A stretch of 64,000 nucleotides of DNA from Candidatus Hermodarchaeota archaeon (GCA_048885525.1 JBHLLP010000014.1:1-64000), one strand, 5' to 3'; positions 19,329-59,533 are shown, numbered from the stretch's first letter. Notes: a model not told the origin generated them from the sequence alone. Program-made: numbers and translations.

Positions 19329-19574
19329 TTATTCTAATCTTTTTCGAAAAAAAACTCCTTTCTCTGTTAAAAAATATTCATTATCATTTTTTTTTATGAG
19401 ACCTAAATCAATTAAAACTGGAAGTCTCCCATTTATGCATGAAATTGGTAACCCAGAAAATAATTTAATCATCTCGTAATTTTTTGCCCCATTATAGATA
19501 GCAACAAGTATTTCAATTCCCATATAACCTATAACATTTTTTAGATCTTCAACGGTGTCTTCATCGTAAGGCAT
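19329..19574 (-). CDS. small winged helix-turn-helix protein
   Basis: RLPVLIDLGLI...YFLTEKG wing motif. Confidence 0.7.
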   Translation of the reverse strand: MPYDEDTVEDLKNVIGYMGIEILVAIYNGAKNYEMIKLFSGLPISCINGRLPVLIDLGLIKKNDNEYFLTEKGVFFRKRLE

Positions 19575-19671: not shown

Positions 19672-20901
19672 TTAGAATTTTTTTTTATTGGTTTTTAATG
19701 TAGACTTACGTTCTTCTTTTGATACACTTATTTTTTCAGACTCAATTGGTTCACTCATTTTTACTTTAGTGGAGTATTTATTCGCTACTACAGGTTCAGA
19801 TTCTTTTGGTAACAGCTTTCTCATCCATTCTGGAAAGGCGGTAGTAATCTGTAAATTAGTTTTCAACACAATATATGTTTCACCATTATAATTTAGTTCT
19901 TCTATAACATCGTATTTCTTTAAGAAATTAATATTTTCCATCAAGGAATCTAAAGATTTCTTTGATACTAATTTTGGTAATTTATCTTTTGAAATTAGAC
20001 CATTTCTTAATTCTGAAAGAACATTGTATTTTTTAGAATCAGCCATTATTTGAAATAATGTAAAAGCATCTTCTTTTATTTCTTCCTTACTTTTCTTTTC
20101 ATATTCACTATAATATTCTTGGACTTTAGGGAGGAGTAGCTCTATTAGTTCTGGTTTATCATCAATATATTCTATAACACTATCTGGAGGTATTCTTTCT
20201 GCATTTACTTCTTTTAATAAAAGAACATATCTTTCTACTAATCCTATTTGATTTATGAAAATAAACTGTTTATCAACTAGGGTTTCGATAATTCCATTAA
20301 AATCTTTTTCAGGGAATTTTTCAATAAACCATTCTCTTAACCACTCTAATGGTATTGGACCTTTAGATAATTTTTCTAAAGTTTTAAAAATATGTCTATC
20401 ATTTAATAGGATAGCAATTTTCTCTTCTTCGGTTTTTTCCCTAGTATCTTCGATGATTGTCCAATATAAATTATTTACCCATGCTTTTATTAAAGATTCA
20501 TTTTTAATTATATTCTCTTGATCATCTTCATCAAAATTACTAATGTCAGTTATATAAAAAGCAGTAAAAATTTCTTCATTTGATTGTAATCTTTCTGAAA
20601 ATTCAGAGCATAATTTTGATATTTTCTCTTCAATTTCAGGGGGAATCAGCTGATCAAGGATTATTGAAACCATTAACATTTCTTTGTTTCCTCTCGCCCA
20701 ATCTGAATGAATTTCAAAATAATAATTCATCGATTTTAGATTTTCAAAAGAATGTGTAAAAAAACCCTCACTAAATTGCTGGTCCATAATGTTAGCTACT
20801 TTACCCGCTAATTCCTTTTCTAATATATTCTTTGGATAAGAATAGAACACTAATGGACCAATTTTGCGATGAAAATACGATAATGTAACGATAGTTTTCA
20901 A
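19672..20901 (-). CDS. longin/uDENN-domain protein (folliculin/SMCR8/NPRL2-like) with probable C-terminal winged-helix domains
   Basis: N-terminus MKTIVTLSYFHRKIGPLVFY and loop FEIHSDWARGNKEMLMVSII. Confidence 0.6.
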   Translation of the reverse strand: MKTIVTLSYFHRKIGPLVFYSYPKNILEKELAGKVANIMDQQFSEGFFTHSFENLKSMNYYFEIHSDWARGNKEMLMVSIILDQLIPPEIEEKISKLCSEFSERLQSNEEIFTAFYITDISNFDEDDQENIIKNESLIKAWVNNLYWTIIEDTREKTEEEKIAILLNDRHIFKTLEKLSKGPIPLEWLREWFIEKFPEKDFNGIIETLVDKQFIFINQIGLVERYVLLLKEVNAERIPPDSVIEYIDDKPELIELLLPKVQEYYSEYEKKSKEEIKEDAFTLFQIMADSKKYNVLSELRNGLISKDKLPKLVSKKSLDSLMENINFLKKYDVIEELNYNGETYIVLKTNLQITTAFPEWMRKLLPKESEPVVANKYSTKVKMSEPIESEKISVSKEERKSTLKTNKKKF

Positions 20902-21110
20902 TTAATGAATCTCCATTAAGATTTCTTTTATTGAATAACAAGAACAGCTCTTTTTTTCTGTTTAACCTAAATTAAATTAATATTGAAGATTATATATTAT
21001 TAAAGATAAATAAATTTATCTTAACTTACCCTCTAATATCTTAGAATAATTAATATAACAAATCAATGTAATTTATTTTAATGAATCAATAATAAAATCG
21101 GAATTTATTT

Positions 21111-21857
21111 ATGAGCCCTATAAAATTAATTGGATTTGATTTAGATGATTGTCTATTTGACTCCACGGGATTATCTGAAAGGGCCAGAATTAAAGGCCTT
21201 GATGCAATGATTAACTTAGGCTTAGAAATTGACAAAAACAAAGCGGTAAGGATATTGAATGAAATTGTAAGAGAATATGGTTCAAATTCATCAAAACATT
21301 ATAATCATTTCGTAAGAAGATTGAATCAAATGGATGAAAAAATAGAATTCATGTCATATAATGATCGATATAAATATATCGCTGCTGCTGTTATGGCTTA
21401 TCATGAGGAAAAAGTAAATTCGATAAAATTATATGATGATGTTAGAAATAGTTTAAGCAGATTAAAAGAATTATCAATAAAAACAGCAATCATAACCGAT
21501 GGAATTCCAATAAAACAATATGAAAAGATATTAAGACTCAAAATTGATAAATTGCTCGATTTAGTAGTTATCTCTGATGAAATTGGAATTAAAAAACCTA
21601 ATCCAGAGTTATTTACTTACTGTTTAAAAAAATTTAAAGTAAAAGGTCAAGAAACAATATATGTTGGAGATCGGTTAGATAAGGATATAGTACCTGCTAA
21701 TATAAACAATATTTACAGTGTATATCTTCACAGGGGCGGAAAGTATGACAGTTATAAAAAAGAGTTTAAAATTCAAGGCTATTCTAAGCCAGATTATGAG
21801 ATCTCTAATTTGAACGAATTATTTGATATAATTGATGAGATTAATGATAAAGAGTAA
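21111..21857 (+). CDS. HAD-superfamily hydrolase
   Basis: FDLDDCL, ITDG, KKPNP and YVGDRLDKD motifs. Confidence 0.9.
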   Translation: MSPIKLIGFDLDDCLFDSTGLSERARIKGLDAMINLGLEIDKNKAVRILNEIVREYGSNSSKHYNHFVRRLNQMDEKIEFMSYNDRYKYIAAAVMAYHEEKVNSIKLYDDVRNSLSRLKELSIKTAIITDGIPIKQYEKILRLKIDKLLDLVVISDEIGIKKPNPELFTYCLKKFKVKGQETIYVGDRLDKDIVPANINNIYSVYLHRGGKYDSYKKEFKIQGYSKPDYEISNLNELFDIIDEINDKE

Positions 21858-21873
21858 AAGGTTATTCTATAAA

Positions 21874-22692
21874 ATGAGAGTAGCATGTATCCAACCACAA
21901 ATCTTTCAAGAAAGAAATAAATGTTATAATGAAATTGAACGAATTTTGAGAGAGCTTTTAGAAGTACATAAAAATTGCGAAATTATATGTTTACCTGAAA
22001 GATGGGTTCCTTTATTTAAAAATTCCTCTCTTAATTTTCAAGAACAAAGGGGCAAAGATTATTCTTTTATTCAAAATTTAGCTAGAGAATACAATATTAA
22101 GATTTTATCAGGAGCAATTTGGGAAAAAAGAAGAGGTTTTAAAAAACCTGCCATAACCTGTTACTATTTTAATGAGAATGGCGAAGAAATTGGCAGACAA
22201 GATAAAATTCACCTCTATGCTTATGAACGCGAGTATTTTGAGTCAAGCAACGAATTAAACTTATTTAAATTGAGCAATTCCCATCTTTTTACGATTCTAA
22301 TATGTTTTGATATGGCTTTTTTTGAGACTCCTCGATTGGCTGTTGAAAATGGAGCAGATATACTATTCTCACCTACACAAATAAGGCAAGATGGAATGAA
22401 AAATTGGCAAATTTATTTAAAAGCACGAGCTCTTGAAAATCGCGTACCTATAGTGGCATGTAACACTTATGGAAGATATTTGAAAAGAAATTTCATAGGG
22501 AAGAGCAAAATCATTTCTTTCCATGAAGGGAATATATCTCCATCTAAATTAAAAATCGTAGAAGGTCCAAAAGATTCAAGTGGATTTATTTTTGACAATA
22601 TCGATTTAATTTTTCCAAGAAAATTAAGAAATATTCGTTTAAAAGAACAAATTGATAAAAACAAAATAAAAGTCAAAATAATTAATAACTAA
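21874..22692 (+). CDS. carbon-nitrogen hydrolase (nitrilase/amidase family)
   Basis: Catalytic triad LPE, KIHL, ICFD plus ARALEN; start placed at MRVACIQ. Confidence 0.9.
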   Translation: MRVACIQPQIFQERNKCYNEIERILRELLEVHKNCEIICLPERWVPLFKNSSLNFQEQRGKDYSFIQNLAREYNIKILSGAIWEKRRGFKKPAITCYYFNENGEEIGRQDKIHLYAYEREYFESSNELNLFKLSNSHLFTILICFDMAFFETPRLAVENGADILFSPTQIRQDGMKNWQIYLKARALENRVPIVACNTYGRYLKRNFIGKSKIISFHEGNISPSKLKIVEGPKDSSGFIFDNIDLIFPRKLRNIRLKEQIDKNKIKVKIINN

Positions 22693-22713
22693 AGTATAAT
22701 CTTGTAATTTGAT

Positions 22714-23670
22714 ATGAATGGTTTAAAAGAACTAAAAAAAATCCTTTTTTGTGGTTTAGAAAGTGGTGGGAAAACATCAATATTATTACTATTAGATAAG
22801 AAATTTAGTTTATTGCCTACAGTCAAACCAACTATAAAAGCAAAAAGAAGTTTTCATACAAACTCGTTATTGGGAACGTCAATTGTCCGTTGGGATTTAG
22901 GTGGACAAAAGAGTTATAGAAAAATATATTTAGGTCATAAGAGTAGATATTTTACCGATATGCAATCAATATTTTATGTGATTGATGTTCAAGCACCAAA
23001 TAAATTTGAAAAATCATTAATATTTCTTAAAGATATTATAAATATTACTTCTGAGTCACATCCTGAAAATTTTCAGTTCTTAATATTACTTCATAAATAT
23101 GATCCGGATATTAAAAATAATAAAGAAATTCTAAATCATGTGAAGTATTTAGAAAACCAAATCTCATCTGCTATTAAAGATATTAAATATTCCATTTTTA
23201 AGACTTCAATATATGATGAACCAAGTTTATTGAAGGCTTTTTCTGATGGTGTTTTTTACGCAACCCATAAATCAAAAATGTTTGAAACTTTATTGAAAGA
23301 ATATATGAGTAAAACTTACAATAGTTCTATGCTTTTATTAGATCAAAATTGTTTTATAATTGCTAGTAGAACCACTAATGAAGATTATCAGAGAATATGT
23401 GAAGCCATCGCTCCAAGATTAACTCAAGCATTAGAAAAGTTAGAAGAATGGGACATAAATACAATTGATATTGTGACAAATGTAGAATTTCCAGGAAAAC
23501 AATCAGAATTTCAAAAAGAGGGAATAATTTTTCTTAGAAAATTAGATATAAATAACACGAGACTATATTTAGTCGCACTCTGCCTAAATAAAAAAGTGAA
23601 AATTAAATCATATGAGTATTTACCACTATTAGCAGATAATTTAAAAAATTTAGTAGAAAGTTTTGAATAA
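22714..23670 (+). CDS. Rag/Gtr-like small GTPase with C-terminal roadblock/longin-like domain
   Basis: GLESGGKTS, WDLGGQ, HKYD and TSIYDEPSLLKAFS (Rag-type G4 and G5), plus a C-terminal domain of about 130 aa. Confidence 0.8.
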   Translation: MNGLKELKKILFCGLESGGKTSILLLLDKKFSLLPTVKPTIKAKRSFHTNSLLGTSIVRWDLGGQKSYRKIYLGHKSRYFTDMQSIFYVIDVQAPNKFEKSLIFLKDIINITSESHPENFQFLILLHKYDPDIKNNKEILNHVKYLENQISSAIKDIKYSIFKTSIYDEPSLLKAFSDGVFYATHKSKMFETLLKEYMSKTYNSSMLLLDQNCFIIASRTTNEDYQRICEAIAPRLTQALEKLEEWDINTIDIVTNVEFPGKQSEFQKEGIIFLRKLDINNTRLYLVALCLNKKVKIKSYEYLPLLADNLKNLVESFE

Positions 23671-23861
23671 TCTTTAACTTTATTCTTATATTACAAAATA
23701 CTTTTTCATCTATTCCTTATTTTAATTCTAAACCTGTTTGGATTTTAAGTTATAATTTTTTTTTTAAAATTTGATATATATTTTAATTTTACTTTTAATG
23801 ACCTCTCTGGGTGGGGTTTAAATAGTTATGATTAAAATCAATTTAAATAAAGGTATAAAAA

Positions 23862-25055
23862 ATGATTGCTAAATTCAATGTAAATAAATATTATGCAGGT
23901 CCAAAAGCCTTATTTGATCCAAATTATATCCCACCGCATCTTTTATATAGAAAAAAAGAAGAAGATTCTCTCTATTCAATTTTAAATGATTCATTATTTG
24001 ATGAATTTAATCTCAATATACTTTATCAAGGAATTAATGGTATTGGAAAGAAAGTAATAGTTAATAAAGTATTAAATGATCTTTTTAAACAAAATAGAGA
24101 ATTTATTAAAATTAATAAAATTTGTGTGGATTGCAAGGAAAAACATCCTGAAGAAATAATTTTTTCATTACTAAGTAAAATAATTAGGTTATCAAATCTC
24201 AATTTCGATTTTCAACCACTATTAAATTCAGAGATATCCCACTTATGGAATACGTTTAAATTTATTTGTAATAGGGACAATTCACATTTATTTTTTATAT
24301 TTAATAACATCGAGTATTTACCACCGTATATTTTCAATAAATTTATACAATTTAGCAGGGAATCAAAAATAACTTTAATATCTACAATAAATAAAATTAT
24401 ACAACCTGGAACAATGGAGTTATTTTCTGAGTTTGATTTAAAAAAGAAGCTGAATTTCTATACTTATAGAGAGCTTTATTTTATTTTAAAACAGAGAGTA
24501 TTATTGAGTTTTTCCCGTGAAATAGATAAAAACCTCATTAGATACATTACAGATTTGATCTGTGAGCAATATGTCCCTGTTCCGGGAAAAGGAATTCAAA
24601 TACTTCGAGATTTATATCCAATATTAAAAAATCAACATTCTTTAAAAGATTTTGAAGTTTTGGAAATTTTTCAAAATGAATTTGATACATTTCACATTTC
24701 TGATGAATTCAGTATGATAAATTATCTTTCTGAAGAAGATATATTAACAATAATATTTTTAGATAATCTTTCGAATTATTTTACTTCTAAAAATAAGTTT
24801 TATATCTCTTTAAAAGAATTAAACGAATTATATAACATTTCATGTGAAACTTTAGAGTTTCAAAAATCTCTTAATGAATTTCGCGAATTAACTGAAGAAA
24901 TGTTGAACATTGGAGTTTTAAAACCCTCAAAAAGAACATTTCACAAGAAAAGTAATAATGAGATTTTCAGTGGAGTAAATAATGATTACTTCTTCATATT
25001 GATTAATCCTAAAAAAATAAAGGTAATTATTGATGCAATTTTTAACCAGCGTTAA
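23862..25055 (+). CDS. divergent Cdc6/Orc1-like AAA+ protein with degenerate ATPase motifs
   Basis: FDPNYIPPHLLYRKKE N-terminus typical of Cdc6; Walker A GINGIGKK; Walker B region FFIFNNIE; probable C-terminal winged helix. Confidence 0.75.
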   Translation: MIAKFNVNKYYAGPKALFDPNYIPPHLLYRKKEEDSLYSILNDSLFDEFNLNILYQGINGIGKKVIVNKVLNDLFKQNREFIKINKICVDCKEKHPEEIIFSLLSKIIRLSNLNFDFQPLLNSEISHLWNTFKFICNRDNSHLFFIFNNIEYLPPYIFNKFIQFSRESKITLISTINKIIQPGTMELFSEFDLKKKLNFYTYRELYFILKQRVLLSFSREIDKNLIRYITDLICEQYVPVPGKGIQILRDLYPILKNQHSLKDFEVLEIFQNEFDTFHISDEFSMINYLSEEDILTIIFLDNLSNYFTSKNKFYISLKELNELYNISCETLEFQKSLNEFRELTEEMLNIGVLKPSKRTFHKKSNNEIFSGVNNDYFFILINPKKIKVIIDAIFNQR

Positions 25056-59008: not shown

Positions 59009-59533
59009 TTAAAAGAAAAATTTAACAGCTGCTTCCGAGATAATTTTAAATGCGAGTTCAACATTTTCTCCCGTTTTTGCAGATGTCTGAATAACTGATA
59101 TAAAATTAATTTCCTTTTTTATAGAATTAATTTCTAATTCACTTAATTCCGTTCCTAAATCACTTTTATTTGCGAGTAGAATAATTGGGGCCTGGGCACA
59201 ATATTGTTTTACGTCCGGAATCCAGAATTTTTCAATTTGATCGAATGTGTTTCTGCGTGTTAAATCCCCTACTATAATAATTCCTTTAGCTCCAGCATAA
59301 TAAGATGGTCTCATACTTATCCAACGCTCTTGTCCAGCGATATCCCAAAGCTGAAGTTTTGTATCATTATCCTTTTCTAATTTTATATTTTTAGTAAAAA
59401 TGTTTGTACCTATACTTGACCGATAATCTTTAGTAAATTGCCCAGTTATAAATTTTTTAACTAAACTTGTTTTGCCAACAGCAGGTTCTCCAATAATAAT
59501 TATTTTCAGTGTGTATTTCTTAATCTTGTTCAT
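59009..59533 (-). CDS. Rab/Ras-like small GTPase
   Basis: GEPAVGKTS, WDIAGQE, NKSD and SAK motifs; no C-terminal prenylation cysteines. Confidence 0.9.
   Translation of the reverse strand: MNKIKKYTLKIIIIGEPAVGKTSLVKKFITGQFTKDYRSSIGTNIFTKNIKLEKDNDTKLQLWDIAGQERWISMRPSYYAGAKGIIIVGDLTRRNTFDQIEKFWIPDVKQYCAQAPIILLANKSDLGTELSELEINSIKKEINFISVIQTSAKTGENVELAFKIISEAAVKFFF

Follow-up and report, generated by a model that had tools for sequence, protein, structure and literature searches.

A 409-residue protein encoded in the 64,000-nucleotide stretch of DNA analyzed here (Candidatus Hermodarchaeota archaeon, GCA_048885525.1, JBHLLP010000014.1:1-64000; hereafter the window) may well be a Lokiarchaeial, NPRL2-like longin protein of the GTPase-activating protein (GAP) type, which would act on a Rag- or Arf-like GTPase through a conserved arginine, R70. 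We slightly favor this reading, with a probability of about 0.55. Eukaryotes govern their growth by way of Rag GTPases, for which longin-domain GAPs, namely GATOR1/NPRL2 and FLCN, act as off switches. The G+C content is ~26–30% across the window, and the homologs of its proteins that carry names belong to metagenome-assembled genomes (MAGs) of Lokiarchaeia/Promethearchaeota.

A first-pass annotation of the window had described the open reading frame (ORF) at 19672–20901 on the minus strand as a Folliculin/SMCR8-like longin protein carrying an HSDWARG motif. The N-terminus and the motif were read in the ORF as described (H65-S-D-W-A-R70-G71), and the longin fold was borne out by structure prediction and by structural alignment with Z scores of 11–14 to the longins of GAP complexes. 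The resemblance to Folliculin and SMCR8 holds for the longin domain, its GP motif, and its arginine, but the layout of the whole protein is that of NPRL2/NPRL3.

Predicted Fold and Domain Architecture

The AlphaFold2 (AF2) model of the 409-residue protein, for which an alignment of 71 sequences served as input, reached a predicted local distance difference test score (pLDDT) of 89.8 and a predicted template modeling score (pTM) of 0.79, with pLDDT values above 93 for residues 1–150. The N-terminal domain shows the β-β-α-β-β-β-α-α order of a longin (β1 3–11, β2 15–22, α1 29–41, β3 46–52, β4 55–65, β5 73–82, α2 88–107, and α3 111–153). Structural alignment with VIA-align was run twice, once independently of Foldseek and against all representatives. 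The highest score of the longin domain was obtained with the solved Lokiarchaeota roadblock-longin 8YQG (Z 14.1), followed by FLCN (13.4–13.9), NPRL2 (13.6), NPRL3 (13.1), yeast Npr2 (11.9), Lst4 (11.3–11.8), and C9orf72/SMCR8 (11.4), while the longins of SNAREs, adaptors, TRAPP, DENN proteins, and Mon1-Ccz1 did not exceed 10.4. In the independent run taken by itself, the GAP-complex longins (FLCN, NPRL3, Npr2, C9orf72/SMCR8, and Lst4) scored 11.3–13.4, compared to at most 10 for SNARE and adaptor longins.

FLCN, SMCR8, and NPRL2, the comparisons called for by the first-pass annotation, thus all match the longin domain, but only NPRL2/NPR2 comes first over the full length. When the whole model was compared with the PDB using Foldseek, ranks 1–4 were NPRL2 chains of GATOR1 (E = 1e-5 to 1e-4), ahead of FNIP2/FLCN, yeast Npr2, and NPRL3. 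The NPRL2 alignments reached 402 columns and several spanned the full length of the protein, with a high global root-mean-square deviation (12–20 Å) because the domain orientations differ. Likewise, in the ESM Atlas, NPR2 was the only eukaryotic family that aligned over the whole protein: its clusters (PF06218) covered residues 1–371/374, with 210–241 residues aligned and TMq values of 0.40–0.42, whereas Folliculin clusters covered only residues 1–224/232.

No DENN domain was found in the C-terminal half of the AF2 model, which contains two winged helices instead (158–237 and 272–355), each with a three-stranded wing. The first resembles winged helix-turn-helix (wHTH) domains of the ArsR/HxlR/MarR type (VIA-align Z 8–9.7), and the second resembles CzrA (Z 7.9), with weak HlyU/ArsR profile matches (E ~0.3). 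NPRL2 and NPRL3 were previously described as a longin followed by at least two wHTH domains of four helices and two strands (PMC3747258). The predicted architecture is therefore NPRL2/NPRL3-like, a longin and two winged helices, and not FLCN/SMCR8-like, since FLCN and SMCR8 carry a DENN domain after the longin.

In Pfam and NCBIfam scans, the 409-residue protein matched only DUF7950 (E = 0.16) and a Csa3 helix-turn-helix (HTH) model (E = 0.0025), both far below cut-off. Among its 71 relatives, the only matches were weak ones to Afi1, in four members (best E = 0.031), and when the protein atlas was queried by features, all clusters retrieved belonged to Promethearchaeota and were without names.

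The GP Motif and Arg70

Residues G15 and P16 open strand β2, and this GP pair is kept in 61/62 sequences. NPRL2, FLCN, SMCR8, and C9orf72 reportedly share such a motif, which is placed where the β1–β2 loop ends or β2 begins and is next to the arginine finger; NPRL3, FNIP2, and non-GAP longins are reported to lack it (PMC12290439). Arg70 lies in the β4–β5 loop and is conserved in 58 of the 64 sequences of alignment A1. Nine positions (F10, G15, P16, P23, F62, S66, R70, E74, and S79) are at least 90% conserved in a set of 66 related longin domains whose column identity averages 27%, which answers the question of whether R70 is conserved among homologs. For G15-P16 and R70, conservation above 90% extends to relatives with as little as ~25% identity. 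The combined GP...xxRG pattern was kept in 48/49 longin-family ORFs of the fetched loci, and the relatives that lack the arginine are short stand-alone paralogs. Because of this conservation at such low overall identity, together with the retention of the pattern in all but one ORF, the motifs of the longin protein, as read from the alignments, are beyond chance. The distance between GP and the arginine is 54 residues here, compared to 57 in human NPRL2 (GP at 20–21, with Arg78 taken from the literature).

These residues could also serve binding or folding, in which case the longin dimer would be a non-catalytic platform that engages a Rag- or Arf-like GTPase in the role of guanine nucleotide exchange factor (GEF), scaffold, or effector, comparable to Mon1-Ccz1, TRAPP, DENN proteins, or Ragulator. 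The domain indeed also matches the longins of DENND1, CPLANE, Mon1-Ccz1, and TRAPP (Z 8–10), and the majority of the longin/roadblock platforms described are GEFs (PMC3747258; PMC10933270). However, the arginine is kept in 48 of the 49 ORFs together with GP, a motif reported only in GAP-complex longins, and the closest structures are themselves GAP-complex longins. We consider such a platform to be rather unlikely.

Longin–GTPase Links Elsewhere in the Family and Genome

Fusions to a G domain occur in seven relatives from the same longin family, six with an Arf-type and one with a Ras-type domain. In addition, Rag-like-roadblock paralogs of 470–500 residues were found with an N-terminal longin whose GP and ARG are in register (hhalign E = 1e-4, probability 58%). 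GAP activity of the 409-residue protein is plausible, and support for it comes from these natural fusions, in which GP/ARG longins are joined to GTPases of the Rag-like and Arf-like kinds.

The source genome encodes one such single-chain protein, in which a longin that has both GP and ARG precedes a Rag-like G domain and a C-terminal roadblock-like region (C57:2675-4138; 467–487 residues for proteins of this kind). Related single-chain proteins were detected at L051:961-2403, L053:1495-2907, L057:1018-2436, and L059:1012-2415, and a relative on L060 lacks ARG. The source genome also contains a four-gene minus-strand cassette (C20:47591-51780; L061:592-4781) encoding, in this order, an ArsR-type HTH protein, a 182-residue Arf/Rag-like G domain (Gtr1_RagA E = 6e-16, with HKFD), a MASE3-PAS-HisKA-HATPase kinase, and a receiver-longin fusion whose longin is weakly of the GP type (E = 7e-4 to the family hidden Markov model). 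From its gene content, this cassette is apparently a two-component system wired to a small GTPase; the receiver-longin type of fusion has already been published (Liu et al., bioRxiv 10.1101/2020.10.19.343400).

A stand-alone longin of 164 residues is encoded elsewhere in the source genome (C7:29222-29716; L062:2223-2717). As a close paralog, it matches the N-terminal domain of the 409-residue protein with E = 4e-39 and has GP and WARGNKEMLM intact, and no GTPase was found near its gene (C7_29222_29716). This protein might pair with the 409-residue protein in a dimer. There is no second full-length longin paralog in the source genome, while some other genera have one.

The Neighboring Rag-like GTPase and Its Distribution

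A 318-residue GTPase is encoded 1.8 kb from the start of the longin gene. The first-pass annotation had pointed to a Rag-type protein at this distance, with HKYD and TSIYD motifs and a C-terminal roadblock, and the ORF, its PF04670 match, and its AF2 model agree with this description. The protein carries the P-loop GLESGGKTS, WDLGGQ, HKYD (127–130, with H127, K128, and D130 invariant), and TSIYD (164–168), and it matches Gtr1_RagA (PF04670) with E = 3.9e-25 and 89.1 bits, for a cut-off of 22. In the model (pLDDT 83.6), the C-terminal roadblock has the order α-β-β-α-β-β-β-α. The closest solved proteins are the Lokiarchaeal Rags: phmmer E values were 7e-31 for LokiRagO (8YL2), 1.5e-22 for LokiRagM (8ZLA/9M28), 8e-15 for Gtr1, and 2e-12 for RagA, and Foldseek aligned ~310–320 columns on 8YL2 (E = 4e-23, TMq 0.72), with TMq values of 0.69–0.74 for RagA/Gtr1. 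The G domain, HKxD, TSIYD, and the C-terminal roadblock are thus shared with LokiRagO, LokiRagM, and RagA/Gtr1, although the identity is only 26–27% to 8YL2 and 18–20% to RagA/Gtr1. By profile and predicted structure, this protein is a genuine Rag-like GTPase.

The distribution of the two genes was analyzed in a sample of 301 genomes of the phylum, with a cut-off of E ≤ 1e-45 for the Rag-like ortholog. A full-length ortholog of the longin protein was present in 68/68 genomes of its own family and in 7/7 of the sister family (75/75 of the order), and only domain-level relatives were found outside the order. The Rag-like ortholog was present in 24/301 genomes, including 22/68 and 1/7 of the two families. 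By genus (labeled g1 to g13), it was found in 18/21 genomes of g1, 1/5 of g6, 1/2 of g7, and 1/1 each of g8, g9, and g13, the last with an internal stop. In all 22 genomes that carry both genes on one contig, the source genome included, these are less than 3 kb apart, and only one extra copy of the Rag-like ortholog occurs away from this locus. The 3.58-Mb genome contains ~83 small-GTPase ORFs, ~10 of them Rag-like, and the chance that any one gene has a Rag-like neighbor within 3 kb is ~2% (~14% for any small GTPase).

Five genomes in which the locus is devoid of the Rag-like ortholog had, as their best match elsewhere, a paralog with 31–35% identity, and in these genomes the gene for the carbon-nitrogen hydrolase (CN-hydrolase), which precedes the GTPase gene in the source genome, directly abuts the next gene. 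The longin protein remained 54–72% identical while the GTPase was lost. An ancestral position of the GTPase gene at this locus, followed by repeated loss, is the simplest reading of this gene content. It follows from this reading that the GTPase is an accessory gene of the locus and that, in most of the order, it cannot be required by the longin protein.

The two proteins had been proposed to form a cognate GAP–GTPase pair. In its strongest form, this would be an exclusive pair and a minimal ancestral version of the GATOR1/FLCN–Rag module for amino-acid sensing. The proximity of the genes (1.8 kb), the near absence of the Rag-like ortholog outside the locus, and a decayed copy that the sister family carries at the equivalent position, which suggests an ancestral arrangement, are all in its favor. 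However, the GTPase was repeatedly lost even within genera (g6 1/5, g7 1/2, g4 0/28) while the longin protein was retained, and an exclusive partnership is thus excluded for most of the order; furthermore, nothing in the data bears on amino-acid sensing. We consider the exclusive pair to be quite unlikely. The part of the proposal that stands is the location of the Rag-like ortholog at this locus; the part that does not is a fixed pairing, given 75/75 genomes for the longin protein and 22/68 and 1/7 for the GTPase. The RagA-like GTPase would be a facultative, and not the sole, partner of the longin protein, because most related genomes keep the latter without it.

The gene order was compared in 16 loci from 13 genera, all of one order. 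The longin gene had a HAD hydrolase gene as an immediate neighbor in 16/16 loci, also where the orientation of the latter had changed (g10), and the gene for an 81-residue wHTH protein was found within a few kb in 16/16 loci. The CN-hydrolase gene was at the locus in 13/16. The synteny to which the first-pass annotation had looked is therefore firm for the HAD and wHTH neighbors but facultative for the Rag-like GTPase. The paralogous full-length longin copies on L048–L050 and the distant homolog on L047 have no GTPase, HAD, or wHTH neighbors.

Other genes were observed at related loci. In g6, g8, and g9, an extra gene of 288–361 codons lies between the longin and wHTH genes (L033:8464-9330, L037:8366-9451, and L038:5874-6893). 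The N-terminus of the encoded protein is roadblock- or longin-like (IFIVDKxNNTLIFL), and a conserved 'F(S)EYPxKPK' segment in its C-terminal part recalls RWD/UEV folds; no homolog was found in the source genome. The encoded protein might serve as a partner subunit. Three genomes of the sister family (g10, g13) carry a gene for a 230-residue small GTPase ~5.5–6 kb from the longin gene and not adjacent to it (L042:642-1334, L043:12992-13684, and L045:312-1007), which is the ortholog of C28_3553_4239 in the source genome.

A second GTPase of the window (59009–59533) had also been suggested as a partner and was rejected. It is an ordinary 174-residue Ras/Rab-like protein, 38 kb away and one of ~83, and a complex of the longin protein with it is thus without genomic basis.

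The Divergent Spacer

The longin gene and the HAD gene are separated by a spacer of 209 bp (20902–21110). An inverted repeat (21003–21022) lies there inside a conserved block of ~50 bp that is kept in genera g1, g2, and g6 and partly in g8 and g9, the other spacer sequence having diverged. The repeat is unique in the 3.58-Mb genome (0.004 occurrences expected). With up to two mismatches allowed, this palindrome occurred three times genome-wide, while 3.7 occurrences were expected, and there is therefore no regulon signal outside the locus. It may function as an operator or as an element of a bidirectional promoter.

The divergent gene pair conserved in 16/16 loci, together with a perfect 9-bp repeat that several genera share and that occurs nowhere else in the genome, would also fit a transcription regulator, whose winged helices would bind the palindrome and control the HAD/CN-hydrolase(/GTPase) operon, with the longin domain as a sensor or as the input for a GTPase. 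The similarity of the winged helices to DNA-binding wHTH domains of the ArsR/HxlR/MarR type (Z 8–9.7) points in the same direction. However, both domains are acidic to neutral (pI 4.5–6.8 in 18 orthologs, 4.5–6.5 for the first), which is unusual for DNA binders, and the equivalent domains of NPRL2/3 make protein contacts. Moreover, the palindrome is very AT-rich and could equally be a bidirectional TATA/BRE element, and the neighboring 81-residue wHTH protein would be an equally good candidate to bind it. Direct regulation of transcription by the 409-residue protein thus appears improbable, and its two winged-helix domains probably mediate protein contacts.

Proposed Mechanism and Evidence against It

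If the 409-residue protein is an NPRL2-like GAP, its longin domain would form a homodimer or pair with a small longin paralog, and the dimer would offer a platform to a Rag- or Arf-like small GTPase. R70 would then enter the nucleotide pocket and speed GTP hydrolysis, as do NPRL2 Arg78, FLCN Arg164, and SMCR8 Arg147. The best candidate substrate in the source genome would be the RagA-like GTPase-roadblock protein at 22714–23670.

Several observations weigh against this reading. At the sequence level, none of the Pfam NPR2, Folliculin, and Longin models matched the 409-residue protein at E ≤ 1, and the scan of the 71 relatives gave no NPR2 or Folliculin match at E ≤ 0.1. When the family profile was compared with PDB sequences, NPRL2 was retrieved over residues 9–41 alone ('TLGP', the GP segment), at a sub-threshold E of 0.14–0.17. 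Profile alignments to NPRL2, with the full-length protein or the longin domain as query, never reached Arg78, and the residue-for-residue equivalence of R70 and Arg78 is one that we infer. No NPRL3-, FNIP-, or DEPDC5-like partner was identified; the Pfam scan of neighboring genes revealed no such domains, and no dedicated search for DEPDC5 was performed.

The gene distribution provides further counterarguments. Of the genomes of the two families, all of which keep the longin protein, 46/68 and 6/7 yielded no Rag-like ortholog, including all those of g2 (0/4), g3 (0/4), g4 (0/28), g5 (0/2), g10 (0/3), and g11 (0/2), and the paralogous full-length longin copies (L048–L050) have no GTPase within 7 kb. 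The synteny, since it comes entirely from one order, may reflect a single evolutionary event. Finally, most longin/roadblock platforms described so far are GEFs or scaffolds and not GAPs.

Features of the Locus

The features of the locus are listed in Table 1. The HAD, CN-hydrolase, and GTPase genes lie on one strand with gaps of ~16 and 21 nt, and in view of these short gaps and of the T10 run behind the GTPase gene, an operon is plausible, as had been proposed when the HAD and nitrilase-family genes were grouped with the GTPase. The T10 run is likely the end of this transcript. Judging by the N-termini of homologs, the CN-hydrolase likely starts at the ATG at 21874 rather than at 21832. A 397-residue protein is encoded between the GTPase gene and an SMC gene (23862–25055), in a position that is conserved across the family; the Pfam scan returned no significant match for it.

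Table 1. Features of the longin locus, with positions counted from the first nucleotide of the window.
Feature	Position	Strand	Evidence
NPRL2-like protein, 409 aa, TTG start, begins MKTIVTLSYFHRKIGP	19672–20901	-	ORF; AF2 model; Foldseek
Longin domain, aa 1–155	20437–20901	-	AF2 and VIA-align Z scores
GP motif G15-P16, start of β2	20854–20859	-	61/62 conserved
Arg70 (WARG), β4–β5 loop, candidate arginine finger	20692–20694	-	Conservation in family alignments
Winged-helix domain 1, aa 156–240, four helices then three strands	20182–20436	-	AF2
Winged-helix domain 2, aa 272–357, four helices then three strands	19831–20088	-	AF2
Disordered Lys-rich tail of the 409-aa protein	aa 378–409	-	AF2
81-aa winged-helix protein (HTH_45), downstream of the longin gene, same strand	19329–19574	-	PF14947 E = 9e-7
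Perfect 9-bp inverted repeat AAGATAAAT-AA-ATTTATCTT	21003–21022		Longin/HAD divergent spacer
HAD-IA hydrolase (TIGR02253), in divergent orientation to the longin gene	21111–21857	+	TIGR02253, 194 bits
Carbon-nitrogen hydrolase, nitrilase superfamily	21832–22692	+	PF00795 E = 4e-28
RagA/Gtr1-like GTPase, 318 aa, C-terminal roadblock aa 185–316	22714–23670	+	PF04670; AF2; Foldseek
T10 run after the GTPase gene	23756–23765	+	Read from the sequence

Relation to Known Systems and Significance

The class to which the 409-residue protein belongs is already known, and it is not a new kind of system. Asgard NPRL2-like proteins and NPRL2-like longin fusions were reported earlier (Liu et al., bioRxiv 10.1101/2020.10.19.343400), as were Asgard longins of the FLCN/SMCR8 type with GP and an arginine finger, for which a Rag-like versus an Arf-like partner was left as a question (PMC12290439, Traffic 2025). 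According to Tran et al. (PMC10933270), GTPase genes generally lie outside operons with longin or roadblock genes, and partners cannot be read from gene order. The published GAP-type longins of Asgard archaea share GP and the arginine with the protein described here and include fusions to two-component domains and GTPases; a longin with a small C-terminal domain is reported for the majority of Thor MAGs and for a few from Loki. The 409-residue group is universal among the sampled genomes of one Lokiarchaeial order (75/75), with a conserved neighborhood and a facultative Rag-like neighbor.

Among eukaryotic proteins, NPRL2/Npr2 of GATOR1/SEACIT (6CES, 7T3B, 9V0J, 9O5A, 8ADL; PF06218) has the same succession of a longin and winged helices, GP at β2, and a loop arginine. 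Unlike NPRL2, the 409-residue protein has no Pfam NPR2 match, shows ~13–15% identity in structural alignments, and ends in a disordered Lys-rich tail; it is also prokaryotic, with no TOR pathway, and its genomic partners are the HAD hydrolase, the CN-hydrolase, and the small wHTH protein. FLCN of FLCN-FNIP2, a GAP for RagC/D (6NZD, 6ULG, 8DHB; longin Z 13.4–13.9), and SMCR8-C9orf72, an Arf GAP (7O2W, 6LT0; longin Z 11.4), likewise have GP and an 'ARG'-type finger loop but carry a DENN domain where two winged helices are found here.

What the locus provides is a concrete pair of proteins, both small and soluble, a candidate GAP and a GTPase, while the distribution data caution that the pairing of the longin protein with the Rag-like GTPase is facultative. 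A broader and very unlikely possibility is that the whole block (wHTH, NPRL2-like protein, palindromic promoter, HAD, CN-hydrolase, with or without the RagA-like GTPase) is a pre-eukaryotic metabolite switch, in which the NPRL2-like protein would turn off the Rag-like GTPase and be co-regulated with, or report on, a nitrogen/amide pathway. If this were true, the link of NPRL2 and Rag to nutrient status would predate eukaryotes and TOR.

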